This document shows, piece by piece, positions 10,707 to 44,269 of a stretch of 44,269 nucleotides of DNA; within the stretch, counting starts at the first letter, position 1, and each line of letters starts with the position of its first letter. The DNA comes from Pseudogymnoascus verrucosus. Lineage: Eukaryota. The translations under genes were made by a program, and so were the position numbers. The notes under the pieces are model-generated. The model was not told where the DNA came from and searched no databases. It saw only the letters and a program-made list of their open reading frames with translations. The stretch lies in assembly GCA_001662655.1 (NCBI GenBank), contig KV460239.1; one strand, given 5' to 3'.

Positions 10707-13700
10707 ATGGGCTTCCTCAAACAGGTCTGGACTCTGACGGCGAAGAATCTGTTGATCGCTGTCAGGCGGCATCCCCTGCCGACGTCCATCCGGACGTTCA
10801 TCCTGCCCGTGGCTTTTATGATATTCCTGACCTATTCGCGCTTCCTCTTCGCCCAGCCAAACGTCTTTGGTATCGGACCTCCCCGCCCCATACGCTCCCT
10901 GGAAGATGGCATGGCAGCTGCGACCAATGGGAGGGATAAGGTCATATTTATCGACAATGGGCTCAATGGCGGCGACATTGATCGCGTCATTGATGCCGTC
11001 TCGGCTCCTATTATTGCGGCGGGGAGAAATGTCACTCGGCTCCCCGATGGAACGGATTTGGCCAAGATATGTCGGACGAGCTTCAGGGGCATTACTAAGT
11101 GCTATGGAGCCGTTGAGTTTGCCTCGTCGCCATCCGAGGGTCCGTATGGACGCTGGAACTACTCCCTACGGTTCGACGGCGCCCTTGGCAGTATTGTTAA
11201 CATGCAGCGCGGCGACAATGATCACCAGATCTATGCACTACCTCTGCAACGGGCAGTCGACTCAGCTATTGCGAGCGTGAACACGACTATTGACCACTCA
11301 AAGCTACCCAAGACTGTTATGGAGTACCCCTACACGACTATCACAGAGGAGGAGCGCAAGAAACTTCTCCGGACGAAGTTCCAACGGACTATCATTACCG
11401 CTCTTGGGATCGCATTTCTTCTGGCTATGGTCGGAGTCGTTTATCACCTCAGCGGCTTCATGGCCACGGAACGAGACATTGGTATGTCCCAACTGATCGA
11501 GGCCATGATGCCGAACGAGAAGCGCTGGCAGCCTCAGATTGCCAGGCTGTTGTCCTACCATCTATCCTTCACCATCATGTATGCCCCTGGCTGGTTTGTT
11601 ATGGGAGTTGTTCTCAGCTTTGGCTTGTTTACCGCCACCTCTGCGGAGATCACAATTTTATACCATATCCTCCTGGGACTTTCGCTCACATCATGGTCAT
11701 ACATGGGCGGGGCTTTCTTCAAGAGAGCTCAGCTCAGTGGGATCACCATTACCATCATCACTCTGGTGCTCGGGATTATAGCCCAAGCTTTCGGTTCAAA
11801 GACGGGCAGTGGAGGGATGGTTATGGTGCTAAGCGCCCTCTTTGCCCCCTGCAACTACGTCTGGTTCATGATGTATATCGCCCGCTTCGAAGAGCACGAA
11901 ATTCCAGCGAATCTGAACCAGAATGCGCCTGATCTGTGGAAAACAAAGGGTACATGGTTCTTCGTTTTTCTCTTCATACAGATATTTGCGTACGCTGCCA
12001 TTGGTGTGTTTGTGGAGCGATGGCTACATGGCACACAATCTAAGGGGCGCACTACTGTCAAGGAGAACATGGGGACTGGGCTCGCACAGCATACTGTCGA
12101 GCTATCGGAATTTACCAAGGAATATCCCGCGAAGTTTATGAGGCGGATGTTCCGTCGCTCTAAAGGTACTACGGTTATGGCAGTCAATGGACTGAGTCTT
12201 TCTGCTTCGAAGGGAGAGATTATGGTATTGCTTGGCGCCAATGGGTCGGGAAAGAGTACAACCTTGGATGCTATTGCTGGCATGAACCCAGTTACAAGCG
12301 GAACAATCACTGTTAATGGAACTGGTGGCATTGGAATATGTCCTCAGAAGAACGTTCTTTGGCCTGAGTTAACGGCGAGAGACCATATTCGCATCTTCAG
12401 CAATCTCAAATCGACCGGAGCTTCTCCCACCAAAGAAGAAAACGCAGAACTGATACGGAGTGTTGATCTGGACCGGAAGATAGACGCCAAATCCCATACT
12501 CTGAGCGGTGGTCAGAAGCGAAAACTGCAGCTCGGAATGATGTTGACGGGAGGGAGCGCGGTGTGCTGTGTGGACGAAGTCTCTAGTGGATTAGATCCGC
12601 TCAGTCGAAGGAAGATCTGGGATATCCTGCTTGCGGAGCGTGGAGCACGCACCATTATCTTGACAACTCATTTCTTGGACGAAGCTGATCTGCTAGCTGA
12701 TCGTATTGCGATTCTTTCCAAGGGAACGCTTCGTGCCGAAGGTTCATCTGTCGAGCTCAAAAACAAGCTCGGCGGTGGTTACCGTGTTCATCTCCATACC
12801 ACGTCCGTCGACAGGGAAGTGCCTGCCATTGATGGCATAACTGCAGTTAAACAGTTTGATCAGATTACATACAAAGCAGCCACCTCGAGCCAGGCAGCCC
12901 TTATCGTCAAGACGCTCGAGAGCCACGGTATCGAGGATTACGAGCTTTCAGGTCCCACTATCGAAGACGTATTTTTGCAGCTGGCAGACGAGATCCGCCA
13001 CGAATCCGAGACAATCGCTGGAGCTGCACCCCCGGCCACTGCTGCAACTGGTGCAAGTGATGTCCGCCTTGTGGGTGATAGAAACGAACCCGTACTTGCG
13101 ACGCCATCAAGTGATAACCAAAGTCTGGATCTGATGCAAGGGAGGCCAATAGGGCTTGTGAGGCAAGGTTGGGTCATGTTCCGAAAGCGCCTGACTCTCA
13201 TCCGCCGCAACTTTTTGCCTCCCCTGGCGGTCTTCTTCATTCCAATTATCTGTGCAAGCTTAGTTACACGGCTCGTTAAGGACCAGAAAACACCCACTTG
13301 CTCTCCTGTTACGGCGAAAGATGCGAAGTTTGAAACTATTTCGAACCAATATGTCTACGACCTCATCGTTGGCCCGTCGAGCAAATTTGTGGGTACAAGT
13401 GCTGCTGCATTCTTTGGGAAGCTATTCCAGGGGCTTCCTGAGGCTAGCCTCATTGCCAATTATATTACGGATGACAACTTGCACATCATGCCGACCTACT
13501 CCGATTTTAACAAGTACATTGATGTGAACCATCAGAACGTCACACCAGGAGGCTTTTGGCTGGGCAACGCTGACTCGGCGCCCACGATAACATATCAAGC
13601 ATCCCACTATTTATATAGCGCCATTTTCGCACAGAACATCTTGGGCTCGCTGATGAGCAATATCACGGTCACCACTCAGTTCAGAGACTTCGAGAGCCCA

Positions 13701-15596
13701 TGGCAGCCTGGCACTGGTAATTCGCTGCAGCTGGTTGTGTACTTCGGACTTGTCTGTGCTGCCGTCCCGGCTTTCTTCTCTCTATACCCTACTTTGGAGC
13801 GCCTGAGACACGTCAGAGGTCTTGAATACTCGAATGGAGTTCGCCCCGCGCCGCTGTGGTTCGCCTACCTCATCTTTGACTGGGTGGTTTTCCTCGTGTC
13901 CTTGTTGATTGTCACCGTTATCTTTGCTGCCCTAAGCAAGGTCTGGTATCACATCCCGTACCTGTTTGTCGTCCTCCTCTTTTACTCCCTAGCATCCATC
14001 CAGATGGCGTACATTGTTTCGCTATATGCCAGGGGTCAACTTGCATCATTTGCCATTGCGGCAGGCAGCCAAGCCATATTTTTCCTACTGTATCTGATTG
14101 CATTTATGTCTGTCAACACCTTCCTGCCTGTGGACAAGGTTGATAAAGCCGCTCTTGTCGTCCACTACACGATATCGCTTGTCACACCGATGGGAAGTCT
14201 TGTCAGAGCGCTATTTGTGTCGATGAACCTTTTCCAGACAACCTGCGTTGGGTTTGAACTCTCACCGAACCCGGGGAGCATGAATATGTACGGTGCGCCG
14301 ATCCTATACCTTGCAGTGCAGTCTGTCGTATTCTTCCTGTACCTGCTGTGGCATGACAGCGACTCCGTTGTTTCGCGAATCCGAGGATCGCGACAGAAGC
14401 TCCCAGAATCGGATGAGGTCGAATTAGACGACCGCGCAGATAAACTGTCTAGAGTTGATACCGGGAACAGTGATGGCCTGCGCGTGCGCCATCTCACGAA
14501 GTCCTTCAAGAAGTTCACAGCAGTTGAGAACCTGTCATTTGCCGTCGAAAGAGGCGAAGTATTTGCGCTCCTCGGACCAAACGGCGCAGGAAAATCAACA
14601 ACCATCTCTCTTATCCGCGGCGACATCCGGCCTTCCAAGAACGGCGGCAACATCTACGTCGACGACATCCTCATCAGCAAGCACCGCGCCAAGGCCCGCC
14701 TCCACCTCGGCGTCTGCCCTCAATTCGACGCCATCGACCAACTCACCGTTGCCGAACACCTCCGCTTCTACGCGCGCGTCCGCGGCGTCCCAGACATCGA
14801 ACATAATGTTGCCGCTATTACTACTGCAGTCGGTCTCGACGCCTTCTCCCACCGCATGGCCGCCAAGCTCTCTGGCGGCAACAAGCGCAAGCTCTCCCTC
14901 GGCATCGCGCTCATGGGTAACCCCTCTGTCCTCCTCCTCGACGAGCCTAGCTCGGGTATGGACGCTGCCGCAAAGCGTGTCATGTGGCGCACCCTTGCCA
15001 ATGTGTCGGCGGGCCGTGCTATCCTGCTTACGACGCATAGTATGGAGGAGGCGGGTGCGCTGGCGTCTCGCGCGGGTATCATGGCAAAGCGCATGCTTGC
15101 TCTTGGTACAACGGATCATCTGCGCCGCGCTCATGGTGACGCATATCACGTCCATCTCGTCACCACAACGGCGCCACATACGAGCCCAAGGGAGATGGCC
15201 GAGCTGCGCGATTGGGTAGTCAACGAATTTCCCGGCGCCAGCATCGAAGAGAAGACGTACCACGGACAACTGCGCTTCTCTGTGCCAACAGCATCCTTAA
15301 CATCCGATGCGGCATCCGGTGTTACCGATGAGATCGAAGGCGGTGGCGAGCCGGTGGGGAAGAAGGCTGCCAGCGGGATAGGGGCGCTGATCATGGCGTT
15401 GGAGGAGCGGAAGGCGGAGTTGGGGCTGGAGTATTACTCGGTTAGTCCGACGACACTGGATCAGGTTTTCTTGGCGATTGTGACGAAGAATAATGTGGAG
15501 GAGGAGAATTATGCAGCGCCGAAGAGGGGGCTGGGGATTTGGGAGAAGATACCCTGGGGGAAGAAGAAAGCTGTTGAGGGCAGCCCTGTAAAATAG
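10707..15596 (+). CDS. Full-size ABC transporter, ABCA subfamily (1629 aa, intronless)
   Basis: (TMD-NBD)x2 layout with large extracytoplasmic loops. Walker A GANGSGKST and GPNGAGKST; signatures LSGGQKRKL and LSGGNKRKL; Walker B regions CCVDEVSSGLD and LLLDEPSSGMD; TTH H-loops; C-terminal TTLDQVFL. Confidence 0.95.
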   Translation: MGFLKQVWTLTAKNLLIAVRRHPLPTSIRTFILPVAFMIFLTYSRFLFAQPNVFGIGPPRPIRSLEDGMAAATNGRDKVIFIDNGLNGGDIDRVIDAVSAPIIAAGRNVTRLPDGTDLAKICRTSFRGITKCYGAVEFASSPSEGPYGRWNYSLRFDGALGSIVNMQRGDNDHQIYALPLQRAVDSAIASVNTTIDHSKLPKTVMEYPYTTITEEERKKLLRTKFQRTIITALGIAFLLAMVGVVYHLSGFMATERDIGMSQLIEAMMPNEKRWQPQIARLLSYHLSFTIMYAPGWFVMGVVLSFGLFTATSAEITILYHILLGLSLTSWSYMGGAFFKRAQLSGITITIITLVLGIIAQAFGSKTGSGGMVMVLSALFAPCNYVWFMMYIARFEEHEIPANLNQNAPDLWKTKGTWFFVFLFIQIFAYAAIGVFVERWLHGTQSKGRTTVKENMGTGLAQHTVELSEFTKEYPAKFMRRMFRRSKGTTVMAVNGLSLSASKGEIMVLLGANGSGKSTTLDAIAGMNPVTSGTITVNGTGGIGICPQKNVLWPELTARDHIRIFSNLKSTGASPTKEENAELIRSVDLDRKIDAKSHTLSGGQKRKLQLGMMLTGGSAVCCVDEVSSGLDPLSRRKIWDILLAERGARTIILTTHFLDEADLLADRIAILSKGTLRAEGSSVELKNKLGGGYRVHLHTTSVDREVPAIDGITAVKQFDQITYKAATSSQAALIVKTLESHGIEDYELSGPTIEDVFLQLADEIRHESETIAGAAPPATAATGASDVRLVGDRNEPVLATPSSDNQSLDLMQGRPIGLVRQGWVMFRKRLTLIRRNFLPPLAVFFIPIICASLVTRLVKDQKTPTCSPVTAKDAKFETISNQYVYDLIVGPSSKFVGTSAAAFFGKLFQGLPEASLIANYITDDNLHIMPTYSDFNKYIDVNHQNVTPGGFWLGNADSAPTITYQASHYLYSAIFAQNILGSLMSNITVTTQFRDFESPWQPGTGNSLQLVVYFGLVCAAVPAFFSLYPTLERLRHVRGLEYSNGVRPAPLWFAYLIFDWVVFLVSLLIVTVIFAALSKVWYHIPYLFVVLLFYSLASIQMAYIVSLYARGQLASFAIAAGSQAIFFLLYLIAFMSVNTFLPVDKVDKAALVVHYTISLVTPMGSLVRALFVSMNLFQTTCVGFELSPNPGSMNMYGAPILYLAVQSVVFFLYLLWHDSDSVVSRIRGSRQKLPESDEVELDDRADKLSRVDTGNSDGLRVRHLTKSFKKFTAVENLSFAVERGEVFALLGPNGAGKSTTISLIRGDIRPSKNGGNIYVDDILISKHRAKARLHLGVCPQFDAIDQLTVAEHLRFYARVRGVPDIEHNVAAITTAVGLDAFSHRMAAKLSGGNKRKLSLGIALMGNPSVLLLDEPSSGMDAAAKRVMWRTLANVSAGRAILLTTHSMEEAGALASRAGIMAKRMLALGTTDHLRRAHGDAYHVHLVTTTAPHTSPREMAELRDWVVNEFPGASIEEKTYHGQLRFSVPTASLTSDAASGVTDEIEGGGEPVGKKAASGIGALIMALEERKAELGLEYYSVSPTTLDQVFLAIVTKNNVEEENYAAPKRGLGIWEKIPWGKKKAVEGSPVK

Positions 15597-19103: not shown

Positions 19104-20935
19104 ATGGATGGCGTTTCTATCACCAAGTTCTCCCGAACGGGGGCCCCTAAATCAAAGGGGGGTTGCGCCACGTGCAGGTATCCTGCCCCTTTCACCCTCG
19201 GGTTTGTTGGCATGCCGCGTCTAACAGGGATTGTAGAAATCGAAGGGTCAAATGCGACGAAGGAAAGCCATATTGTATCCGCTGTGTCAAAGCCAAGCGA
19301 ACGTGCGGTGGATATAACCCTGTAAAGGGGCGCTCGCGGCAGGACAACGGGCATACCGCCCCCCTTCAATACGCTCTAATAAAACCCAAGAAGCTACCAC
19401 TACTGCAAGCGGCAGCTAGCTCCCTTACACTGCGTGCACCCTCCTCTGCCTTCCTCGGAGAATCTGAGATTGAGAAGCGCTACTTCAGCTACTTCCAAGA
19501 GACGGCTACTACAGGCCTTGATGGCACCTGGGGCTGGTCTCTATGGAACTCGTTAATGCTGCAGAGTAGCCACCAAGAGCCGTTCGTCCGGCATTCTATC
19601 ATCGCTATCGGCGCCTTGTTAAAGTCGCATGAAGCAGCGTACCTAGCTGGCGTGGGTCCACGTTCCGTTGTCGTCCCGTATATAGCGAGACTGCACCGCA
19701 GCTTTGCGTTATCAAAGTATGACACGGCTGTTAAGTCGATGCGGAAAGCTATGAGTGTGGGGATGAGTAGTCCGCGCCAAACCTTACTTGGGTGCATCCT
19801 CGTCGTCTGCTTCGAGATGCTTATTGGGAATAGCTACCTTGCCATCAAGCATGCACATTCCGGGACTTCAATCCTTGAGCAATGGCGAACGCAAACGCTT
19901 ACGCCTATACAAGAAGAGCGCCCACTACTCTCTCCTGCCCCGTTGGTCGTTGAGGACGAAATTGTTGAGGCTTTCCGAAGCCTTAGCATCCAGATCACAA
20001 CATTGGGGAATGATAACGCTGCCATTTATACTAAGAAAACAGCGAACTACGACTGGGTCAATAGCACGGCGCCTCTAACATGCACCGACCTCCGTGAGAC
20101 ACATGTCTATCTCAACGAAATCGTCTGCCGTGTCTACCACTTCATTACCACGATCCCGATTCCCTCTGGATCCATTGTGTCCCCGAAGAAACTCGACTAC
20201 GAACCTCTTCAAGAAGACTCCTCAGTGATGACAAACATGGTCATCTATAGAACCGCATTTGAGGTCACCGAAAATGTCAGAGCTCAGCAAGGGCATCTTG
20301 CTCAAGAGATATCGAATTGGATGCGACTGTTTAAGCCACTTCTTGAAAGCCTATGTGTTAAGGAGAAGGCTAATGGGGCAACATTCAACTGCGCTTCTCA
20401 TGTGGCGGCAATGATGCATATTCAGGCCATCGCAACTATGATACTAACTGCGGGCGTGCTGGTCACGAACGAGATGGAGTATGATAAGTTTGATACTCTA
20501 TTCCTAGAACTCGTTGATCTAGCTACGCTCATTGTTAAACTGAGGCAACAAAGCAAGAAGGGTAATTCTTGGGTGGGAGGACCTTGGATTGATATTGGTC
20601 TTACGCCACAGCTCTTTGTGGTTGTGACACGATGTCGCGATCCAATTATACGACGAAGGGCGATAAAGTTATTGGAGGGGTGGTATATCGAAGGGTTCTG
20701 GGATCCGGCGTTAATTGCGCAGATTGGATTGTTTATTATGGAAGTGGAAGAGGAAGGTCTAGAGGAGGTGGACTTCGGATGGGGGAAGCAATCCATCATT
20801 CCGGAGTGGTCGAGGGCAGTAATATCACGGATTAGTGAGGACTCGCAGAAACGGACTGCATTGATACAGTGTGTACTTAAGAGCGGTGGAGCGGATGGGG
20901 GTCCGGTTTGGAGGGAGAAGTATGTGGAGTGGTGA
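19104..20935 (+). CDS. Zn2Cys6 fungal transcription factor (~590 aa, 2 exons)
   Basis: Exons 19104-19177 and 19237-20935. The spliced motif is GCATCRNRRVKCDEGKPYCIRCVKAKRTC, followed by a fungal TF C-terminal domain (RCRDPIIRRRAIKLL). Confidence 0.92.
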
Positions 20936-34622: not shown

Positions 34623-36226
34623 ATGGCCCTCCGCACCCCCCCAACAGACCTCGATAGCGACTACGGCTCTGATTTCTCCCCCGAAGACCTCGAGGTCCTT
34701 GATCGTCTCGTCGTCCAGACCCCATCTACCGTCGTCAGCGTCCCTGCACCGCCGACTCCCTTCTTTTTCTCCCGCGAGAACACACCGTCTGCTCGCCGCG
34801 ATGCGCATCCCCCGCGCTCACGCTATGTGGCCAGCATGCCGATCGCGTATGAGACTGAGCCCCTCGCGCCCCCCGCGCCCCCGGCAGTCAGTCGCAGCGC
34901 ATACCCAGGCGGCCCAAACGGCGCCATCTACCCGGATCGTGAGTCTCCCCTCTCCTCTCCCCCCTCCCGCACGCTGCTCTGACACCTGCTAAGCGGCTAG
35001 TCTCCGCCGCGCTCTCCTCGCTCAACGAACCCACCACCACTGCCTCTCAGCCTGAAGCACCCCCCACCGAAGCCCCAGTCCCCGACACCCGAACCCCCCT
35101 CCAACGCTACCGCTCCTTCCCCCGCAAAGCCCTCTCCGTCACCGACCTCGTCTCCCCCGCCTGGTGCGAGCTGCAATACTCCCTAACCCTCTCCCTCCAC
35201 GGCCGCAAGCCGCGCACCGAAGCCATGAAACGGGGAAGCGAGGTGCACGCCGCGCTCGAGGAGGAGGTGTATACGTCTGTCCAGATCGAGGTTGCGACCA
35301 AGGAGGATGCGTGGGGGTTGAGGGTGTGGAATGTTATTCAGGGACTGAGGACGCTGAGGGAGGCGGGGATGACGAGGGAGTTGGAGGTGTGGGGGGTGGT
35401 GGATGGGGAGGTTGTGGGGGGGGTGATTGATGAGGTGGGGTTTATGTGTCCGGATTTGGAGAAGGAGGAGGAGGCTGTGAGGGCGCTTGCGGTGGCGAGA
35501 GGGGAGGCGCTGCCGAAGCCTAGGACGATTCTGCCTACTGACCAGAGGGCGCTGGATGAGTATCTACATCCCACACCCCCACAGCTGGCGAAGAGGAAAT
35601 TGTACATTACAGATGTCAAAACTCGCTCTGTTGCCTCCTTACCCCGCGGCGCTTCGTTCCGCCCGACGAAGCTCCAACTCATGCTCTATCACACCCTCCT
35701 CTCCTCCCTCGCCGCGGGCGACTCACCCCTCTCCGCTGTCGCGGCCCGCTATGAGCTCGACACGCACGCGCAATTCAGTCCTGCGTTCGTAGCGCAGGTA
35801 GCCGCTCTCGCAGACGAGGTATTCTACGACGCCCCCTCCAGCGCCGAAGAAGTCGCCCGCGCTCCCGATCCCGCCGGCTCGGAACTATCACGCAACAACA
35901 CCCTCGAGAAGCTCTGGGCCGTCATGATGGAATTATTCACCGAAGTCATCGGCGAAGGCGGTCTAGGACGCGTGCTCCGCGCGGAATACCGCAGTCGCGG
36001 AACGGGAGGGGTGATAGGGGAGCAGGTTTTCCCTATGGATGAGGCGGTCTTGGGAGGGTATATAGGGCATGGGATGGGGTGGTGGAGGGGGGAGAGAGAG
36101 CCGGAGGGGGTGGCGGTGCAAGAGGCGTTTAAGTGTCGGAGTTGTGAGTTTGCGGAGGGGTGTGAGTGGAGGCTTGGGCAGGTGGAGGAGGCGAGGCGGA
36201 GGGCGAGGGGGGGGTGGAAGGGGTAG
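34623..36226 (+). CDS. EXO5: Exonuclease V (~513 aa, 2 exons)
   Basis: Exons 34623-34938 and 35001-36226. Motifs LSVTDLVSPAWCELQY, MKRGSEVHAALE, GVIDE, ITDVKTR, QLMLY and C-terminal KCRSCEFAEGCEWR (Fe-S cysteines). Confidence 0.92.
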
Positions 36227-36939
36227 AGGGCGTGGTGTGGAGTTGGGTTTGGGGCGTCAGGGCGTGGCGGCTGGGGATACCGGATACGGCGATGAGGAAA
36301 GAGAAGGGATTGGGTTTTGGGCAAGTATATAGGGAGAGAAATGTTTCTACTTCCCCTAACTTTGGTCTATAGATTTTCAAGATATAGAAATGGGATTTCC
36401 CAGAGTGCTGCCTGCATCCCATCCAGCTGTGATGGTTGCTCCAGTGGCCGAGAGACACGTCCTGGTGCTCGTCGATGTGTTCGCCGCCACCCCAGCGGTG
36501 GAGTCAGCTCCGCGCCCCTTTTTACAACAATGATTGGTCTCATACCCTAGCGACATCAAGCTCAACCGTTGAAGCTTCATCCAGCCTCGGGTCTCCCCGA
36601 GTAGAACCCTCGTAAACTTGGGATGGGACAATAAAAAACAGCCTGACAGGGCAGAATCCGCGCGAGTTAAAATCGTCTGGTAGAGCGCGTCAGATGTATA
36701 AATATAAAAACACATATCTTCCATTTTCGACTTCTGCGCTGTGCGTTGCCATGAAGCAGTGTTCGGCGGATCGTGATCCGGATCTGATCCTAAGCCCTCA
36801 CGGATTAGGTCATGATTATTTCTAAAGCACATGTTCCGGCCCAACCATGAGCCCAACCCAACCCAACCTAACGTAGTAGTGTAGAACAGTATCGTAGAAA
36901 ATTCAAATCTATAACCTACAACCTACAACTATAGCAATT

Positions 36940-37322
36940 ATGGCTACTATTGCTTCGATTAATCCATTTCCGCATGATGTGCGCACCTGCTTTTAAGGCC
37001 TATATGAGTAGTACTACCTACTATAACCATGAGCAATTTACACACGAAAAATGCCACCATATGCACGTAATACTCGATAATCCTACTACCTATATACAAT
37101 ACAATAAAGAGAGCTCAAACCTTAAGACACGCATACTCTCTAGCTTTATGCTTATTAATAATAAGCTATGTAAGTAAGGTGATAACGGCATCTGCACCCT
37201 AGAATTATGGTTCTAAAAGAAGAGGTGTTTGATATTATCATATAAGAACACCTTAAGCTTCTACATGTAGGCTAGAATAAGGTATAGCCTACTATAGAGC
37301 AATAGTACTATAGGATAAAGCC
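36940..37322 (+). pseudogene. RIP-like degraded fragment of an integrase-type (HHCC zinc-binding, Ginger/KRBA2-like) transposase gene
   Basis: The frame from 37201 reads VLKEEVFDIII*EHLKLLHVG*NKV*PTIEQ*YYRIK, resembling H-x4-H-xGRxK-xW...YYGI. All stops are TAA/TAG and revert by single transitions (CAA/CAG/TGG). There are frameshifts upstream and the region is TpA-rich. Confidence 0.65.
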
Positions 37323-37716
37323 TCCGATCTTGCAGCCTTGATCTTGCAGCCTTAATACGAACATGTCGTCGCTACTATAACTCCATGCAAGATATGCTAG
37401 GCATACTATATAAGGAGCAAGCAGTGCTCTAATGGGCAGCGATTGAATCAAAGAACAATCACAAAGACAGCAAGGGAACAAAGGCTTGCAACTCAAGAAG
37501 GAATCTTCGAAAACCGACAATTCACGGGGGCATAGCAACTCGTTCTACATTACTAAACTTTCGTCATTATTGCTCTATATCCTCTCAATTGAGTGCACAG
37601 TGACATATTTCCATTATGCTATGTAAAAAAGGTTAAGTTCTCGGAATTTGAGCCAACGCACTTTCATCCCCCCGACAGTATCTGGAGGAAGAGGCGATTA
37701 TCTGTTGTGTTGTGAC

Positions 37717-38176
37717 CTATTTCTCCTTTATGCACCTCTCTGCTGCGTCTTTAATGACAGCTTGAAGATAGTTGCCATCAGCTCGAAGGTTGTAGGTGCA
37801 GGTTCCACCTTCCTTGCGGGTAATGGTGACTTTGAGGGTACCGTCCTCATTGGTGTCATATGTGTAGGTGTAATGGACTCCGTCTTGTGTTATAGCCTCG
37901 CCTTTGCCATGGCATCGGGGATTGCTACCTCCAGTGATGCTGCTTACAATGCAAGCGGCGCTATCGAACGGGCTGTTGATGAGGTTGTCCCCTGAACCAA
38001 AGATGCCATGGGCTTGCCTTGCTTGCTCCTGATTAAGATAATGTTAGCGTTGATCCCTGAAGTAAGAAATATAATCTAGATGCCTAGCGGTTATGAAAAC
38101 TTACCGTTGGGACTGGGGTTGCTAATATAGCCCCAGCAAGGCTGGTAATCAAGGCAGCAATCGCGAATGACTTCAT
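37717..38176 (-). CDS. Small secreted protein (127 aa, 4 Cys, 2 exons), effector-like
   Basis: Exon 38176-38105 encodes MKSFAIAALITSLAGAILATPVPT (signal peptide). Intron 38104-38029 is GTAAGT..GCTAAC..CAG. Exon 38028-37717 encodes EQARQAHGIFGSGDNLINSPFDSAACIVSSITGGSNPRCHGKG...GGTCTYNLRADGNYLQAVIKDAAERCIKEK* and is open throughout. Confidence 0.82.
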
Positions 38177-39003
38177 GTTGTCCAAAAAGGTCACGTGTAA
38201 TTCAATGTAATATGATGTTCGTGTTAACGACAAGGGTGCTAATGGAAATGAAAGTTTGCGAATGGCTAATCTCTGCAGTTTCCATGCCACAGTATTTATA
38301 TTTTTGCCCGACTGTTAATTTTGCCTACTTGGTTGCCAATGGGCTGCGGTTCTTCCTTGACGCAGGTGTCCTCTTACAACATAAGACACTGTTATTCATT
38401 AGTGAGACTAAATTCCGTTAGCTTATCTGTGTATAGAGCAAGGATTTACATCAGCTCTACATTGTCTTAAACCACTTCTTACCTGCTGTGTTGAGAATGG
38501 CGGCGTATTGAGCGTTTGGTCTAAGGCAACGCAGAGTTGGTGTAGATCCTAGCCCATGGTTAAATCCCCCCACATATATTCCCGCACGATCATCATAATA
38601 AACACACATTCAAAGTGATAGGCGTGGAGATCTGCATAATGTGGCTCCGCACGCTTGGGGGTACGCTAGTCGAGAAAGTGTTGGCTCCCGAAGGTTCGGT
38701 TGCTCTCCCCGCATTGAAAAATGTGAGCTAGAGAGTTTAGATGTTACTGGAGAGCTAGTTGACTACTGAATAATCGATTACAGTTATAACAAAACATCGC
38801 TATCCTAGGTGAATGCTGATTTTGTTGTGAGGTAGTGGAGACCTAAGCCACCCCGAAGGCTAGTGCCAACACGGTTAGCGGGGGTTTCCATACTTGCTCA
38901 ATCAAGGGCCTAATCGCACGGAGTTGCACCTTTTCAACGTAAGGACCCAAGGAGCAATATCCCTTAGAGGTCATTTGGCCGTTTGTCGTCTAACACTAAA
39001 GGC

Positions 39004-39455
39004 TGTTGCGCTACTAAGGCGGTAAGGTAGTGTCTATGTGTCTAAGACAGTCCGATGTAAGAGTGAACCTAATAGGGCACTTACTATCAGTTGACCCTAG
39101 GTTGACCCTAGGTCTTAACCTAGCTGGCCACTGTCTGTTGATCGATCCTATATTTGACTCGGCTAGTTCTGTGTAAAGGGGAGTCACGTGAGGACGCCCC
39201 CACGTGCAGGACACGATAGGGCTTAGTAAAACTAGGAGCCTTAACATAAAAGGGACTAGAGGCGTAGGACTAAGGCCTCTAGTTAATAGTTGCTGTATCT
39301 ACGTAGACCTATTATGCTTACTAAATACAATACCCTTCCTACCTTCTAACCTAGTTCCCTAGACTTCTATAAGACCCTAGGCTTATGCTTTATAGTTCTA
39401 TTAACTTAACCTATATCTAGCCTACTAGGTTAGGATAGTAGGTGTAGGGGATACA
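39004..39455. mobile_element. Degenerate RIP-like repeat relic, possibly a solo LTR
   Basis: Strong TpA/CTAG excess relative to its flanks. TG...CA ends are possible (tgttgcg...gataca), with internal ATAAAAGGG and AATACAA motifs. No TSD found, so the boundaries are uncertain. Confidence 0.4.
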
Positions 39456-39589
39456 GCCTAATTCAGAAGGGTGGGTGCAGGGGTAGTGGCGGCCTGAGGC
39501 AGCGGCAAAATCCCTCATCGTGATTCAGGGGTGGTGGAGGTTATATTCGAAAACCACAAATCCTAATACTATTTTGGGGAATACTGGTC

Positions 39590-39632
39590 GTGGGCGACTC
39601 ACTTGTGTGGGCGACTCGCTTGTGAAATGCGT
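39590..39632 (-). mobile_element. Orphan terminal inverted repeat of a Fot1/pogo-family element
   Basis: Reverse complement is ACGCATTTCACAAGCGAGTCGCCCACACAAGTGAGTCGCCCAC, with an internal 17-bp direct repeat and TA at 39633-39634. It is 32/43 identical to the TIR at 43027. Confidence 0.75.
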
Positions 39633-39673
39633 TAATATAAAGTACATTATTATATTCTAGGCGGCGATCGAAA

Positions 39674-39768
39674 GCGAAATGCGAAAGCGAACTGCGAAAT
39701 GCGAAATGCGAATGCGAAAAGCGAGAAGCGAAATGCGAAATGCGAAATGCGAAGTGCTAGTGCGAAGT
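39674..39768. repeat. GCGAAAT-type heptamer array (~13 units) 200-300 bp upstream of RTA1
   Basis: gcgaaat gcgaaa gcgaact gcgaaat gcgaaat gcgaat gcgaaaa gcgagaa gcgaaat gcgaaat gcgaaat gcgaagt .. gcgaagt. Confidence 0.9.
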
Positions 39769-39968
39769 GCCAGACCGCCCCTAAAATAAGTATCAGATTG
39801 CATCAGGGTTTTTGGTCGTGGTTATAACTATTGAGGGATTTCTGTCAAATTCTCGTCGAAGCTTGTGTATTCAACATTGCTCACTTCGATCCATACCACA
39901 AGCTTCATTTGCACAGCCAATTGGCAAGCGAGATTCCAAGTGATAAGCACATTACAACATCTGTCACA

Positions 39969-40853
39969 ATGGGCGAGATCAATCCCTGGAGCTATTCGCC
40001 AAGCCCTGCGGCAGCGATGATATTCTTGATCCTTTTTGCAATCACTACCCTTTGGCACATCGTCATCATGTTCCGCCGCCACGCATGGTACTTCACCGTG
40101 CTGGTAATTGGCGGTGTCCGTACGTCTCCTCCTCCTCCTCTTCATTATCTGCTAGTATATCGCGGCAACGCTGACCGACTTCTAACAGTCGAGATTGCCG
40201 GCTATGTCACGCGCTACCTAGCCAGCAAGGAACAAAGCAACATAGCACTCTTCGTCGTGCAGACCCTGTGCATCCTTGTTGCACCCGCGCTCTTCGCTGC
40301 CTCCATCTATATGGTCCTAGGGCGTCTAATCACGCTCGTGCGTGCCGAGGCCTACTCGCCCATACGACCGACGTGGTTGACCAAGATATTCGTGTTGGGG
40401 GACCTCCTCTCCTTCATCATCCAGATCATGGGCTCTGGGATGCTGACAAACAATTTCACCCTTGGAAAGACAATTATCCTAATTGGCCTGATCGCCCAGA
40501 TCATCTGCTTCGGGCTGTTCGTCTTAGTCGCCGTTCTCGTCTCGCGGCGCCTAGCGCGAGACCCAACACCGATGGCGAAATCGCTAGATAGACGCAGCAG
40601 TAAGAACGGCTGGGTGGGTGTCATGCGCGTTGTCTTCTTTGCTAGCGCTCTGATCTTCATCCGGTCCTTCTTCCGTCTCATCGAGTTCACTGGCAATAAC
40701 GACTCTCCTCTACAGAAGAGCGAAGCTTACCTCTATGTTTGTGACTCGACGTTGATGTTCGGTGTTCTGGCCATTCTGATCTACTACCACCCGTCCGAGT
40801 ATGTGAAGGCACAGAGTGAAGTCTGGCAGGGTCAAGGCGAAGAACTCATATAG
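39969..40853 (+). CDS. RTA1: RTA1-family (lipid-translocating exporter) membrane protein (~271 aa, 2 exons)
   Basis: Exons 39969-40119 and 40189-40853, separated by a 69-nt in-frame intron (GTACGT..CAG). Motifs WSYSPSPAAA, LVAPALFAASIYMVLGRLI, TKIFVLGDLLSFIIQ, LIFIRSFFRLIEF and EAYLYVCDSTLM. Confidence 0.93.
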   Translation: MGEINPWSYSPSPAAAMIFLILFAITTLWHIVIMFRRHAWYFTVLVIGGVRTSPPPPLHYLLVYRGNADRLLTVEIAGYVTRYLASKEQSNIALFVVQTLCILVAPALFAASIYMVLGRLITLVRAEAYSPIRPTWLTKIFVLGDLLSFIIQIMGSGMLTNNFTLGKTIILIGLIAQIICFGLFVLVAVLVSRRLARDPTPMAKSLDRRSSKNGWVGVMRVVFFASALIFIRSFFRLIEFTGNNDSPLQKSEAYLYVCDSTLMFGVLAILIYYHPSEYVKAQSEVWQGQGEELI

Positions 40854-41203
40854 CAAGCAAACGCCAGAAGAGCTTGGGTACTGCGATATTTGAGTAGACT
40901 ATTTATCTTGTATAAGCATATAGCGCATTAGAGGCATTGCCATTGTATTTAATAGTTCCTACATTTGTCTATGCGAAAGATACACAGCTTTATTAGCGAT
41001 ACTGGTAGTCGTAGGCGAGAACGTTGCTGAAGCTTTTTTGTTTTGTTCTTAGATTAGAGAAATATGGTGAGGGTAGTGAATTTCTCTTAACGATTTGTAA
41101 ATCGTTGGTTGCATGGGAAAATAGAGTAGTTAGTTTGTCTCTGTAAATGCGCATTCAAATCCTCCTATCCTAGCTATAGTCGTATGTGATGTGATGTGAA
41201 TTT

Positions 41204-42543
41204 CTAAGCCCTATATATCGACAACGGGGGTGATTGTCCTCTTCCTGGTAAGCAGCTCACAAGCATCTGAGCTAGGGCAGTTCTGTCGTTCATCTGTAGT
41301 GCTATTTTTGGTACAGACATATACTCCTCCCATGTTGGATCAATGGTATTGTGTATTTCCTTAATGTCGTGACTAGCCACACCTTGGTAGGTCCATGTAT
41401 CTGGGAGAAACTTGAAGAGGGCTAGATAATATGCAAGTATAATGAGAGCTTGTGGTTGTGCTTGTCGAACCAACTCGACAAACTCGGATGATACCACGTC
41501 GAAGGCCCATGCCTTAATCTTTTTCTCCAACCATGACTCCTCGTAAGGGTGCTCTAGGACAGCGATAAGCCGGCCAAGCTCCGTTGCAGCCTCATGGAGA
41601 CCCTCGGGGTGCGCACAGTCATTCCCCTCTCTTGAAAGTGCGCGCTGAATATCGTCAGGTATGGCTCCTGGCCCTGGGATGTCGGCAAAAGATCCATAGC
41701 GGTTACCAGGAGACTCTATATCGTCTTGGCTGGCAGTGAGGGGAGAGTGCTGTCGAAGGGATGTTGGTGCATGGAAATTTCGCTGCCCTAGGGCGAGGAT
41801 CAGCCAATTAGCTGTCCACAGGCCGAATTGCTTAGTTGTACGGTCTGCTGCTAACGAGACTGTCGCAAGCAGGACGGATGCACCCCTAACAGCATTAAGT
41901 GTTTGCGGCGAGATGTCGGCAACGGCTCGGCGTAGAGTTCGCAAAGCCTGGTCCCGATAGAGATAGACGGGAAGGGTTTCTAAGGAGACGGGGTCTGTGC
42001 AGCCTAAGTGGATCATTGATACGAGGAGGATGGCGTCCATGAGAAATCCGTGCTTGAAGCCAAGTTGTGGAATGTCGACCGTCAACGCAATTGATACCTT
42101 CTCGGGGAACGTCCTAGCAAAGTACTGCGCTGTAAAGATACAGTAGTGATGTATCAGCCGAATATCCAGAAGGTGCTTAGCGCTATAATCTGGCCCTTCA
42201 GATAGTTGCTGGAAGCAGGGCACCGGCTGAGTATCGATGCGGTCTTCGAGTATTGAAGGGCTGGTCTGGACCGGGGAGTTGGCCTGCGTACTTGCCGGTA
42301 CGTTTGCCGCGTACAAGCATTCATCGCCGCGGCGGATGCCTATAAACCGATTAAAAGCCGCGAGAAACACTTTTAGGAGAGGCAGGCATACAACCAGCGC
42401 ATTGCGGTTTGACTTCGTCGCACTAGAGGCCTGTCAGCCGGTTATCCGCTCTAGGAAATGGGGTGACTCACCTTAACTCGCCTGAGTTTGCAGTTGTTGC
42501 AGCCTGTCCGAGACTTTCGATGTGAGCGAATACTGTGCGACAT
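41204..42543 (-). CDS. Zn2Cys6 transcription factor with Upc2/Ecm22-like architecture (~412 aa, 3 exons)
   Basis: Exons 42543-42472, 42422-42392 and 42339-41204. The spliced motif is [37 protein letters not shown]. Also DIRLIHHY and ALIILAYY. Confidence 0.9.
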
Positions 42544-43026
42544 TGTTCTTTGCACTATGTTGAGAGGAAAATTTGGGATCACTAGGGGGTGTATTGGTTC
42601 GTATAGTCCAAGGCTCACCGCCTTCCATCATTAAGACGCAGTATATTGCAACAAAATTATTTTTAGTGTGAGAGATCTCTTAAATATAAGGCTTAGTTAA
42701 GCTAATGCGTAAGCTAAAATCAGCTATAAATCTGTATCATGATATGTTTAAAGCGGGTGAAGCTTATTATATTACTTTGAGACGATGCTTGTTGTCACGG
42801 TAAGCACGTGACTAGGCATACGTAAGACAAATTGTTGTATGCTTAGTAATATCTATATAATCTAGATATATCCTTAGATCTCACAGATACACCAAAATTA
42901 TGACGGATAGGATAATAGGATATATCTAGATCATGATCTAGATCGGGTCGGGTCATCTACGATCTGTGCCGAACACTGCCATGAAGCGTATTCGCAAACT
43001 AGGAGTCCAATCCATAGCTATTATTA

Positions 43027-44269
43027 ACGTATTTCCCGTACGAGTGGCCCACCCGAACGAGTGGCCCACCAAAACACCAAAACGCGTCAATGTGACTATA
43101 GTCAACAATGCCACGACCAACACAAGCCAAATCCTCTAATCAAGAGGATAGAATACTATTAGCTATGCAAGCAATTAAACAAGGCCAGTTTCAAAGTGTC
43201 CGAGTAGCTGCAGCATCGTACGATATCCCTCGAACAACACTACGTCGACGAATTCAAGGAATGACATCCCGACGCGATTCTACACCTAACTTACAGAAGT
43301 TGACTCCGTACGAAGAGTCAGCTCTTGTTCAGTATATCCTCGACCTAGATTCACGTGGATTTCCACCCCGGCCACAAGCTGTACAAGAAATGGCTGACCT
43401 TCTACTCTCTGAACGAGGCGAGAGCCCTGTTGGGAAGAACTGGGCTACGGGCTTCATAACACGTCGTACGGAAATCAAATCAAAGTTTAGTCGGAAGTAC
43501 GACTATAAACGAGCAAAATGCGAAGATCCTAAGATAATTCAAGAGTGGTTCTCTCTCGTACGAAACACAGTTGCAAAATACGGCATCTTAGAGCAGGATA
43601 TCTACAACTTTGATGAAGCAGGTTTCGCAATGGGAGTTATTGCTACTGTAAAGGTAGTCACAAGCTCAGAAGCAAAGAGCCGTCCAAAGACTATACAGCC
43701 AGGAAATAGAGAGTGGGTGTCAATTATCCAAGGTGTCAATTCGTACGGATGGGCACTCCCGCCGTTTATCATTTTTAAGGCGCAGAATCACCTCTCTGCT
43801 TGGTACGAGGACTCAGAATTACCAGACGATTGGGTGATTACACTAAGTGAGAATGGGTGGACTTCAAATTCAATTGGGTACGAGTGGATCCAACACTTCG
43901 ATCGACATACAAGCACTCGTACGATCGGAACCTATCGCCTTCTTATTCTTGACGGACATGAGAGCCACCTCTCAGCTCAATTTCAGCACTACTGCACAGA
44001 ACGGAAGATAATTACCCTCTGTATGCCACCACACTCCTCACACATTCTTCAGCCGCTTGACGTAAGCTGCTTTGCTCCACTAAAGCTTTCGTACGGACGT
44101 CAGATTGAAACCTTCGTACGGAACAGGCTAAATCACATTACGAAGCTTGAGTTTCTCTCTGCATTTAAAGAGGCATTTAAAGCTACATTTACAGAGCAGA
44201 ACATTAAGAGCGGGTTCCGAGCTACAGGACTAGTTCCGTACGAGCCACAGAATGTCCTCTCTTACTTGA
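43027..44269 (+). mobile_element. Fot1/Pot2-like pogo (Tc1/mariner superfamily) DNA transposon, left part; runs off the window
   Basis: TA at 43025-43026, then TIR ACGTATTTCCCGTACGAGTGGCCCACCCGAACGAGTGGCCCAC with an internal direct repeat, followed by the transposase ORF. Confidence 0.95.
43108..44269 (+). CDS. pogo/Fot1 transposase (HTH_psq + CENP-B HTH + DDE_1), 3'-truncated by the window edge
   Basis: ATG at 43108 and no stop to the window end. Motifs YDIPRTTLRRR, VGKNW, IYNFDEAGF, QPGNREWV, LLILDGHESH and HILQPLDV, with DD35D spacing. Confidence 0.95.
   Translation, partial: MPRPTQAKSSNQEDRILLAMQAIKQGQFQSVRVAAASYDIPRTTLRRRIQGMTSRRDSTPNLQKLTPYEESALVQYILDLDSRGFPPRPQAVQEMADLLLSERGESPVGKNWATGFITRRTEIKSKFSRKYDYKRAKCEDPKIIQEWFSLVRNTVAKYGILEQDIYNFDEAGFAMGVIATVKVVTSSEAKSRPKTIQPGNREWVSIIQGVNSYGWALPPFIIFKAQNHLSAWYEDSELPDDWVITLSENGWTSNSIGYEWIQHFDRHTSTRTIGTYRLLILDGHESHLSAQFQHYCTERKIITLCMPPHSSHILQPLDVSCFAPLKLSYGRQIETFVRNRLNHITKLEFLSAFKEAFKATFTEQNIKSGFRATGLVPYEPQNVLSYL

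Follow-up and report, generated by a model that had tools for sequence, protein, structure and literature searches.

A 6.2-kb segment with hAT-type transposon ends, probably inserted downstream of EXO5 in Pseudogymnoascus verrucosus, that holds an RTA1–Zn2Cys6 gene pair and a secreted-protein gene

We analyzed a 44,269-bp stretch of contig KV460239.1 from Pseudogymnoascus verrucosus (hereafter, the window). Downstream of EXO5 lies a segment of 6222 bp (positions 36757-42978) that has the ends of a DNA transposon and contains three genes; its insertion point is 522 bp beyond the end of EXO5 (Table 1). A first-pass annotation had described these genes as intron-containing and uninterrupted, and had identified them as encoding a secreted protein, an RTA1 exporter and a Zn2Cys6 regulator. 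All three proved to be intact, and the identities are right.

Table 1. Features in and around the 6222-bp segment (TSD, target-site duplication; TIR, terminal inverted repeat)
Feature	Position	Strand	Details
EXO5 last exon (context)	34943..36226	+	Pfam Exo5, E 5.1e-133
Left TSD	36749..36756	.	CCATGAAG, exact
Left TIR	36757..36767	+	CAGTGTTCGGC, 11 bp, exact
Left subterminal array	36769..36789	.	4 GATC in 21 bp, period 6
Secreted 4-Cys orphan protein gene	37717..38176	-	127 aa, 2 exons, intact
Solo relic of pogo/Fot1-type end	39590..39637	-	TATTAACGYATTTC + 2x GAGTSGCCCAC
(GCGAAAT)n-like microsatellite	39657..39774	.	upstream of RTA1
RTA1-family membrane protein gene	39969..40853	+	271 aa, exons 39969..40119, 40189..40853
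Zn2Cys6 transcription factor gene	41204..42543	-	412 aa, 3 exons
Right subterminal region	42857..42964	.	18-nt inverted repeat + GATC array
Right TIR	42968..42978	-	CAGTGTTCGGC, 11 bp, exact
Right TSD	42979..42986	.	CCATGAAG, exact copy of left TSD
pogo/Fot1-type transposon (context, separate)	43022..44269	+	DDE_1, HTH_Tnp_Tc5, HTH_psq

The secreted-protein gene has exons at 38176..38105 and 38028..37717 (including the stop codon), separated by an intron of the form GTAAGT...CAG. Its product, whose signal peptide was judged by eye, agrees letter for letter with P0180, a protein annotated in P. verrucosus and in strain VKM F-103. We found no Pfam family and no recognisable fold for this four-cysteine protein, which is lineage-restricted and fast-changing.

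The RTA1 gene is transcribed divergently from the secreted-protein gene and lies tail to tail with the regulator gene. It matches Pfam RTA1 (PF04479) with an E-value of 8.6e-54 and 182.7 bits (cut-off 24) over profile positions 6-207 of 208, which places it in that family; its product is identical to P0182, which itself scores 190.7 bits (E 3e-56). The regulator gene has exons at 42543..42472, 42422..42392 and 42339..41204, with GT..AG introns. Read directly, its N-terminus has the spacing CX2CX6CX6CX2CX6C, split over all three exons, and this agrees with the pattern CX2CX6CX5-12CX2CX6-8C of PF00172. Its homologues P0006, P0187 and P0190 are collinear with it and have the same N-terminus and exon layout; these homologues, as distinct from the window protein, score 32.9-35.7 bits against Pfam Zn_clus (cut-off 21). 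The third exon of the window gene gives only a sub-threshold match to Fungal_trans_2 (E 0.18). No annotated protein at least 90% identical to the window regulator was found in any genome.

The ends of the segment had been described as exact 11-bp TIRs within an exact 8-bp TSD, and both repeats are indeed exact. In an exhaustive scan of the window, this was the only case of an 8-bp direct repeat flanking an 11-bp inverted repeat, and the arrangement occurred in 0 of 200 simulated windows (first-order Markov); with inverted repeats shortened to 8 bp, the mean was 0.23 per simulated window. Alignment of the two TIRs past 11 bp needs a gap, and the likeness between the two ends dwindles within about 50 bp. 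The GATC-rich subterminal repeats, also reported earlier, are real, with a period-6 array only just inside both ends. On the right, an 18-nt inverted repeat (42857-74/42917-34) accompanies an array of three GATC at 42929-42944, plus a further GATC at 42961; the window contains 144 GATC in total. Exact copies of GATCNNGATCNNGATC are confined, within the window, to 36769-36784 and 42929-42944, and allowing up to one mismatch yields 3 matches where 0.12 are expected, a number reached in 1 of 100 shuffles. The left array is a candidate transposase-binding repeat. The window holds no further copy of the element, the element’s interior holds no copy of the TIR at up to 2 mismatches, and a metagenome scan returned a single locus, which was unrelated.

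It might be supposed that the genes are residents of an ancestral locus, and that the TSD and TIRs arose by coincidence or are the outer ends of two unrelated insertions. A coincidence of 19 bases is possible somewhere over some 250,000 windows (theoretical expectation, about 0.005 per window), and the cargo has a host-like composition: its genes have GC3 values of 0.53-0.70, against 0.55-0.81 in seven host ORFs. They thus fall at the bottom of the host range or slightly under it, and composition does not mark them as foreign. However, the pattern is missing from all of the simulations, the ends start with CAG, and the GATC hexamer array, a feature separate from those 19 bases, is present at both ends and absent from the other 38 kb. 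Moreover, two separate insertions would not be expected to have one common TSD.

The first-pass annotation had proposed looking for relatives in which the genes lie beside EXO5, as evidence against an insertion. In strain 23342-1-I1, EXO5 (VE03_05125) is on a contig of 370,722 bp and the RTA1-regulator pair (VE03_08139/40) is on one of 201,001 bp. In WSF 3629, EXO5 (VE00_10106, modelled as a 193-aa fragment) is on a contig of 80,226 bp and the pair (VE00_07406/7) is on one of 146,105 bp. The pair is thus off the EXO5 contig in both of the two testable Pseudogymnoascus relatives, as judged from locus tags and contig sizes, although the contigs concerned may adjoin at their ends. The proposed check therefore did not refute the insertion. 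With this further point against it, we regard long-term residence at this locus as very improbable.

None of the 59 internal ORFs of at least 35 aa matches a transposase family at E<=1, in line with the original report that the segment lacks a hAT transposase. Three intact genes between transposon ends, with no transposase, suggest that a small gene module was moved as one piece.

The TIRs of hAT elements typically begin with CAG or TAG. The earlier reading of a hAT signature holds for the 8-bp TSD and for the short, perfect 11-bp TIRs that start with CAG, given the 8-bp TSDs and 10-25 bp TIRs described for hAT elements in PMC3942097; it must be qualified in that the element, at 6.2 kb, exceeds the 2.5-5 kb given there, and the label is a putative one taken from the structure of the ends. 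The TSD itself can be compared with two hAT target consensuses. That of Ac is nTnnnnAn, and CCATGAAG, a single TSD, has A at position 7 and C at position 2. That of Buster elements is given as nnnTAnnn (PMC3517528), and the same single TSD has T at position 4 and G at position 5. One of the two fixed positions is matched in each case, at one site, where a consensus needs more.

The element might instead be a cargo transposon from a different class II superfamily with 8-bp TSDs (Mutator-like, P-like or Zisupton/KDZ-like). In favour of this are the lack of an internal transposase by which to assign the element, the poor fit of CCATGAAG to the hAT target consensus and a length that is great for hAT. 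However, the pairing of an 8-bp TSD with an 11-bp TIR that starts with CAG is classically that of hAT elements. The other candidates also have points against them: in Mutator-like elements the TSDs are usually 9-10 bp and the TIRs long, few P elements occur in fungi, and Zisupton is chiefly a basidiomycete group. The fungal KDZ (Zisupton) elements listed in PMC5751038 come from Basidiomycota, Rhizophagus, Mucoromycotina and Allomyces. We consider a superfamily other than hAT unlikely, but worth bearing in mind.

In many Pezizomycotina, the regulator and RTA1 genes are conserved as neighbours and form a module. In a tally compiled by eye, their locus tags are consecutive in six genomes (four Pseudogymnoascus strains, Pestalotiopsis fici and Gnomoniopsis sp.), and they lie on contigs of matching size in five more genomes and on eight further contigs. 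Conservation of the pair in this group is wide, if patchy, and the cargo is therefore not an arbitrary capture. The original proposal of a non-autonomous cargo unit is partly borne out, by the footprint, the intact genes and the lack of a transposase. The work described in PMC11707875 and PMC11291775 links RTA-like proteins to tolerance of plant saponins and of antifungals that act on membranes. Because the RTA-like proteins that have been studied appear to act in this way, the module would, by analogy, most likely give inducible tolerance to membrane-active compounds.

We refer to the window’s version of the pair as type A and to the version that related strains have at other locations as type B. 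The window regulator is 78.9-81.2% identical to type-B regulators, which are 92.1-96.7% identical to one another; for RTA1, the corresponding values are 82.6-85.7% and 92.7-97.6%. The window’s pair thus diverges from type B by 14-21%, compared with 2-8% among type-B pairs. Despite this excess, the host distance as measured by EXO5 is equal: the window is 87.3-89.6% identical to those strains, and the two strains are 87.8% identical to each other. In a regulator tree from a quick IQ-TREE run, the type-B genes, VKM F-4519 among them, form a tight clade (SH-aLRT 100), and the window gene is the sister of that clade (97). The genome tree published in PMC4438637 pairs F-4519 with F-103, and VKM F-103 has the type-A secreted protein. 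The secreted-protein gene is found only with type A and is missing from type-B pairs. Type A is no simple vertical equivalent of type B, which fits arrival on a mobile vehicle. The conserved pair, its location on another contig in relatives, the excess divergence and the restriction of the secreted-protein gene to type A all go beyond the first-pass annotation.

An older origin of the two types could also be considered. If two ancestral RTA1-regulator pairs had existed at two loci, differential loss would have produced types A and B, and the transposon ends, though genuine, would be ancient and have no bearing on how the types are distributed today. The types are mutually exclusive among the annotated strains, and type A is sister to all of type B, as an old duplicate would be. 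However, repeated reciprocal loss would be needed within the F-103/F-4519 pair. Furthermore, the synonymous divergence between clades is about 0.5 in the estimates of PMC4438637, and against this value the identity of the TSD (8/8) and the TIRs (11/11) argues for a recent insertion, younger than the clade splits. We therefore view ancient paralogy as improbable.

The first-pass annotation had also raised the possibility of horizontal transfer. A source among distant fungi is unsupported: the regulator groups with Pseudogymnoascus and other Leotiomycetes in the tree.

Our preferred interpretation, to which we assign a probability of roughly 60%, is that the module came to the site downstream of EXO5 on a non-autonomous class II element whose ends are of the hAT type. 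The element would be moved in trans by a transposase of the hAT family, encoded elsewhere, that binds both the GATC repeats and the 11-bp ends. The 6222-bp unit would thereby have entered intergenic DNA in a Pseudogymnoascus genome, duplicating 8 bp of target. Its cargo would consist of a pre-existing conserved two-gene module (RTA1 and the neighbouring Zn2Cys6 regulator) and a lineage-restricted gene for a secreted four-cysteine protein.

The order of events might instead have been the reverse, with a short MITE making the TSD and the three-gene segment entering it later through nested insertion or break repair, such that the 6.2 kb never came to the EXO5 site as a single unit. The interior is in fact mosaic, with the pogo-type relic and the microsatellite between the secreted-protein gene and RTA1; the lack of the secreted-protein gene in type-B pairs and the rapid fading of end similarity, as in a very short parent element, are also in keeping with this order. 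However, the interior has no junctions, duplications or second set of ends that would betray a later insertion, and no inner TIR at up to 2 mismatches, and a block of 5-6 kb landing exactly inside a tiny element would be a second rare event. The different locus of the pair in relatives needs explaining under either scenario. On balance, later entry of the genes into a MITE seems quite unlikely.

A more far-reaching version of the insertion of a gene-carrying element is speculative, and we think it rather unlikely when taken as a whole. Here, the RTA1-Zn2Cys6 pair and the fast-evolving secreted protein would constitute a mobile cassette for stress tolerance, or for a toxin plus protection, on small hAT-type vehicles. 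Such a cassette would pass from one Pseudogymnoascus lineage to another, perhaps also across a broader range of Pezizomycotina, and the incoming type A would have replaced a resident type B in the window’s lineage. If this were true, the element would be to eukaryotes what a resistance transposon is to bacteria.

Several known systems resemble the element in part. Maize Ds is a non-autonomous hAT element with subterminal hexamer repeats. Mar, a hAT MITE, is described with 11-bp TIRs (CAG(G/A)GGTAGGC) and 8-bp TSDs (PMC3517528). Both are like the window element in having short TIRs that start with CAG, 8-bp TSDs and no transposase, and in being mobilised in trans, as the window element may be, but they are small and non-coding or deletion derivatives, whereas the window element holds 6 kb of host-type genes. 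Plant Pack-MULE and Pack-TYPE elements are likewise non-autonomous TIR elements with captured host DNA inside; they typically carry gene fragments or chimeras, in contrast to the complete regulator-plus-target module and additional gene of the window element. In Pezizomycotina, the giant elements known as Starships, tens to hundreds of kilobases long and with a tyrosine-recombinase “captain”, shift accessory or stress-tolerance genes in blocks, both inside a fungal genome and from one genome to another. The window element lacks a captain gene, and its footprint is that of DDE-type cut-and-paste transposition.

ToxhAT had been cited as a precedent. According to PMC6737239, it is a 14-kb TIR-bounded element that carries ToxA in wheat pathogens, is implicated in moving cargo genes between genomes and takes its name from a hAT-like transposase gene next to it. 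The precedent is apt in that ToxhAT is a TIR-bounded, class II-like fungal element with a gene for a secreted protein, the effector ToxA, alongside other genes. It is weaker than had been claimed, however, and the analogy is loose: that source describes 74-bp TIRs of about 92% identity, transposase genes and no TSD found in any copy. With perfect 11-bp TIRs, a perfect 8-bp TSD, a length of 6.2 kb and no internal transposase, the window element is not of the ToxhAT type. hAT elements in Dothideomycetes have transduplicated histone H3 (PMC6710886), another example of a captured host gene on a fungal hAT transposon. As described there, those elements are complete, with one captured coding sequence and many copies, mostly inactivated by RIP; the window element has no transposase, three complete genes with introns and flanks, and a single intact copy in the window.

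In fungi, there are few clear examples of a small DNA transposon that moves entire, working host genes: ToxhAT has no TSD, the histone H3 elements have a single, mostly dead gene as cargo, and Starships use another mechanism. The present case combines a perfect footprint with a complete regulator and membrane-protein module and an additional secreted protein. If its mobility is real, a non-autonomous hAT-type element is able to ferry 6 kb of functional genes, offering a simple route by which tolerance modules and secreted proteins could relocate or spread among lineages; the genus Pseudogymnoascus includes the pathogen of bat white-nose disease.

Finally, the pogo/Fot1-type transposon begins 35 bp to the right of the insertion, with an end motif at 43022-43069 and an open transposase frame from 43102 to the end of the window. 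The relic inside the element is a 48-nt sequence, 77% complementary to this end motif, and it sits in the upstream region common to the secreted-protein gene and RTA1.

The element occupies 6222 bp and is delimited by the footprint of a class II transposon, which surrounds three intact genes and encloses no transposase. The exact 11-bp terminal inverted repeats (TIRs) and the exact 8-bp target-site duplication (TSD) abutting them are confirmed as described in the first-pass annotation. The TIR 11-mer occurs at two places, in opposite orientation, and at no further place even when one mismatch is allowed. Scanning the whole window for an 8-bp direct repeat abutting an 11-bp inverted repeat returned a single case, at the element, and 200 first-order Markov simulations produced no such case; when the inverted repeat was shortened to 8 bp, the simulated mean was 0.23 cases. 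The subterminal GATC-rich repeats are likewise real and specific. GATC is under-represented across the window (144 sites vs 208 expected) and clusters at the element's ends, and the exact pattern GATCNNGATCNNGATC is present in the window only at 36769-36784 and 42929-42944. Beyond the TIRs, alignment of the two ends needs a 22-nt gap, and the likeness weakens after about 50 nt.

Positions of the element's parts and of other features in the window
Feature	Position	Strand	Remarks
Large ABC transporter ORF	10701-15596		1631 aa, one frame
Another Zn2Cys6 gene	19151-20935
EXO5	ends 36226		host gene left of the element
Left junction	36741-36767		gtgcgttg-CCATGAAG-CAGTGTTCGGC...; CCATGAAG, TSD; CAGTGTTCGGC, left TIR
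Left GATC cluster	36769-36789		four sites
CCCAA/CCTAA-type run	36840-36875		cccaaccatgagcccaacccaacccaacctaacg; ~85 bp inside left end
Secreted-protein gene	join(38176..38105, 38028..37717)	minus	127 aa; letter-identical to annotated protein P0180
Solo pogo-type end	39590-39637		48 nt, diverged (77%), opposite orientation
(GCGAAAT)n microsatellite	39657-39774
RTA1 gene	join(39969..40119, 40189..40853)	plus	271 aa; Pfam RTA1, E 8.6e-54; letter-identical to annotated protein P0182
Regulator gene	join(42543..42472, 42422..42392, 42339..41204)	minus	412 aa; collinear with annotated Zn_clus-bearing homologues
Right GATC cluster	42929-42944		three sites; fourth at 42961
Right junction	42968-42995		...GCCGAACACTG-CCATGAAG-cgtattcgc; GCCGAACACTG, right TIR, then TSD copy
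pogo/Fot1-type transposon	43022-44269		HTH_psq, HTH_Tnp_Tc5, DDE_1

Inner copies of the TIR, which would be a sign of a two-element macrotransposon, were absent from the element at up to two mismatches, and the window's long repeats include no second copy of the element or of the neighbouring pogo/Fot1-type transposon. A scan of viral contigs with the TIR and GATCGT gave 31 loci, all of which we attribute to chance because the matches to the two ends were never longer than 20 nt. A text search of the literature for the TIR string returned no transposon paper among the matches listed, which were of the animal or clinical primer type. Immediately before the left TSD, host DNA (36733-36748) resembles the element's last 16 nt (42963-42978) in direct orientation at 10 of 16 positions, a likeness reached by 398 of 200,000 random window pairs; target preference, the relic of an older end and chance are all possible explanations. 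The CCCAA/CCTAA-type run near the left end resembles a telomere repeat and is not identical to it.

Gene models, drawn up by eye using three-frame translations and GT..AG introns, bear out the description of three intact, intron-containing genes. The secreted-protein gene and the RTA1-family membrane protein gene are transcribed divergently across a 1.8-kb spacer, while RTA1 and the regulator lie tail to tail with 350 bp between them. The secreted protein has four cysteines and a hydrophobic N-terminus that, judged by eye, is like a signal peptide. The regulator's N-terminus is a canonical Zn2Cys6 cluster split across three exons; its long exon gave a sub-threshold Pfam match only (Fungal_trans_2, E 0.18). 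No transposase family was matched (Pfam, E<=1) by any of 59 internal stop-to-stop ORFs of at least 35 aa, which were taken outside the secreted-protein and RTA1 frames and included the long regulator exon, in agreement with the earlier statement that no hAT transposase is inside. The GC3 of the cargo genes shows no distinctive composition and no sign of foreign origin. The spacer upstream of RTA1 contains a solo, diverged copy of the end of the neighbouring pogo/Fot1-type transposon, adjoined by a (GCGAAAT)n microsatellite; this relic may mark the place at which the secreted-protein gene became attached to the RTA1-regulator pair.

We assign the element provisionally to hAT because of its 8-bp TSD, short TIR and CAG start, the TSD and TIR dimensions of hAT elements being as described in PMC3942097. 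The one TSD available, from a single site, is a poor fit to the target consensus of either hAT family, and at 6.2 kb the element is longer than the usual 2.5-5 kb. Our reading, supported in its core, is that it is a non-autonomous, hAT-like cargo element whose mobility and superfamily are putative. ToxhAT, the ToxA-carrying element that the first-pass annotation cited as a precedent, shares the common idea, but the parallel was overstated: as described in PMC6737239, ToxhAT has a different anatomy, with 74-bp TIRs, no TSDs and transposases inside. Extra genes can ride on fungal hAT elements, as those that have captured histone H3 show (PMC6710886); in most such cases the element has also kept its own transposase, and the one here has none. 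In our literature searches neither this element nor any hAT-type cargo element from Pseudogymnoascus was described, and no transposase-less element came up that combines a whole regulator-target module, a secreted protein and a perfect footprint.

A transposase encoded elsewhere would move the unit by recognising both its 11-bp ends and its GATC hexamers. The regulator would control RTA1, and the module might confer inducible tolerance to membrane-active compounds, by analogy with studied RTA1 proteins: RtaA of Aspergillus fumigatus has been connected with amphotericin B, and RTA1 genes of Botrytis cinerea with saponins (PMC11707875, PMC11291775). The suggestion that the secreted protein or the module acts as a toxin system is unsupported.

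The pairing of RTA1 with its regulator extends well beyond the window, as comparisons through protein databases showed. There are 625 RTA1 relatives at E<=1e-20, of which 120 were listed, and 55 regulator relatives; from the matches listed, adjacency was compiled by eye. Consecutive locus tags for the two genes are found in four further strains of Pseudogymnoascus (V490_09374/5, VE00_07406/7, VE03_08139/40 and V501_02819/20) and outside it in Pestalotiopsis fici (PFICI_11274/5) and Gnomoniopsis sp. (N0V82_005567/8). Equal-sized contigs carry both genes in Clonostachys byssicola, C. rosea, Truncatella angustata, Xylariales sp. PMI_506 and Penicillium salamii, and in at least eight more contigs of 3-380 kb; for Mb-scale contigs, equal size indicates the same contig and nothing closer. 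Because the two genes are neighbours far beyond the genus, the cargo holds a pre-existing regulator-target module. The cargo, this conserved pair plus a secreted-protein gene, was not picked up at random. A metagenome scan with the regulator gave 33 pattern matches and one apparent relative, whose match of 21 residues, on a contig from the human gut, we judged spurious.

Within Pseudogymnoascus, the module comes in two versions: type A, that of the window, and type B, that of WSF 3629, 23342-1-I1, VKM F-4519 and VKM F-3557. Type A is accompanied by the secreted-protein gene, as seen in the consecutive tags VE01_07547/8 and VE04_03542/3/4, while in the type-B strains a homologue of the secreted protein was undetected. 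P. verrucosus and VKM F-103 have a secreted protein identical to the window's, and P. verrucosus also has an identical RTA1; both proteins are present in 24MN13. No strain had both types among the matches listed. The regulator is intact at 41204-42543. The two genes beside it have annotated counterparts in three related genomes, yet a collection of 5.8 billion proteins has no annotated protein at least 90% identical to the window's regulator, so the gene is either unannotated or absent in other type-A genomes; gene callers probably overlooked it because its two 5' exons are very short.

Gene order is reported to be more than 90% conserved across the genus (PMC4438637), and we located EXO5 in type-B strains by a sensitive search followed by cluster look-up, which made two strains testable. 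In 23342-1-I1, EXO5 (VE03_05125) is on a 370,722-bp contig and the pair on one of 201,001 bp; in WSF 3629, EXO5 (VE00_10106, a 193-aa fragment) is on an 80,226-bp contig and the pair on one of 146,105 bp. Relatives with the pair in place beside EXO5, which would have spoken against insertion, were therefore not seen, the pair being off the EXO5 contig in both strains, a result that still allows adjacency across contig ends.

EXO5 puts the three hosts at roughly equal distances: the window is 87.3% and 89.6% identical to the two type-B strains, which are 87.8% identical to each other. For the regulator, 23342-1-I1 and WSF 3629 are 96.7% identical, the four type-B strains 92.1-96.7%, and the window vs type B 78.9-81.2%; the corresponding values for RTA1 are 97.6%, 92.7-97.6% and 82.6-85.7%. 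Divergence of the module is thus several times what host distance would lead one to expect. A quick IQ-TREE analysis of 59 regulator sequences recovered type B as a tight clade (SH-aLRT 100) with the window's regulator as its sister (97); Oidiodendron maius and others join next (98, 21 rows), and sequences from Sordariomycetes and Penicillium fall outside. Horizontal transfer from distant fungi is unsupported, as nothing indicates a distant class as donor. In the published genome tree, VKM F-103 pairs with VKM F-4519 (PMC4438637), and these sister strains are split, F-103 having the type-A secreted protein and F-4519 type B. Taken together, the divergence, the tree and this split show that type A and type B are not plain vertical equivalents. 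Type A may have originated outside the sampled type-B diversity, be an old duplicate, or have changed very fast. Clades of the genus have a synonymous divergence of about 0.5 (PMC4438637); set against this, the identity of the TSD (8/8) and TIR (11/11) copies suggests that the insertion postdates the genus's deep splits.

The secreted protein has four matches among the 5.8 billion proteins. The closest, P0001 from Pseudogymnoascus sp. 24MN13, is 92% identical (91% over exon 2 in the search table), and its cluster also includes the protein from P. verrucosus and VKM F-103 that is identical to the window's. Zarea fungicola follows at 57%, then two contigs at 43-44%, one of them in a cluster with a protein from Sarocladium strictum. 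The four cysteines are invariant in six aligned sequences. Compared with its 24MN13 counterpart, the window's secreted protein has 10 differences in 127 residues, and the adjacent RTA1 has 0 in 243 comparable ones (Fisher p = 1.8e-5); the translated 3' flank of RTA1 likewise agrees (P0185). This disparity suggests diversifying or relaxed selection on the secreted-protein gene, or a recombination boundary between the genes. At full length the protein matched no Pfam family; exon 2 alone gave a sub-threshold DUF5640 match (E 0.0088, 16.3 bits vs a cut-off of 28.5). An AlphaFold2 model from six sequences had a pLDDT of 62.6 and was confident only for residues 61-127, which form four strands and a helix. 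With no usable feature match in the ESM Atlas (structure TM <=0.48), no Foldseek match to the PDB at E<=0.001, and a best Z of 5.9 in a wide VIA search, inside that tool's stated background, no fold can be named.

Left of the element is ordinary core genome: an ABC transporter, an amino-acid permease, SET, TFIID, LCM, SUN and EXO5. The large ABC transporter ORF and the additional Zn2Cys6 gene in that region are unrelated to the element. The window has no further long repeats, and a tRNA scan of all of it and an Rfam search of 36000-44269 returned nothing. A separate pogo/Fot1-type transposon begins 35 bp after the right duplication, and its transposase reading frame stays uninterrupted as far as the window extends. 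This transposon looks young, and RIP-type stops were not seen in it. At its end, TATTAACGTATTTC precedes two GAGTGGCCCAC repeats, which are spaced 17 bp apart.
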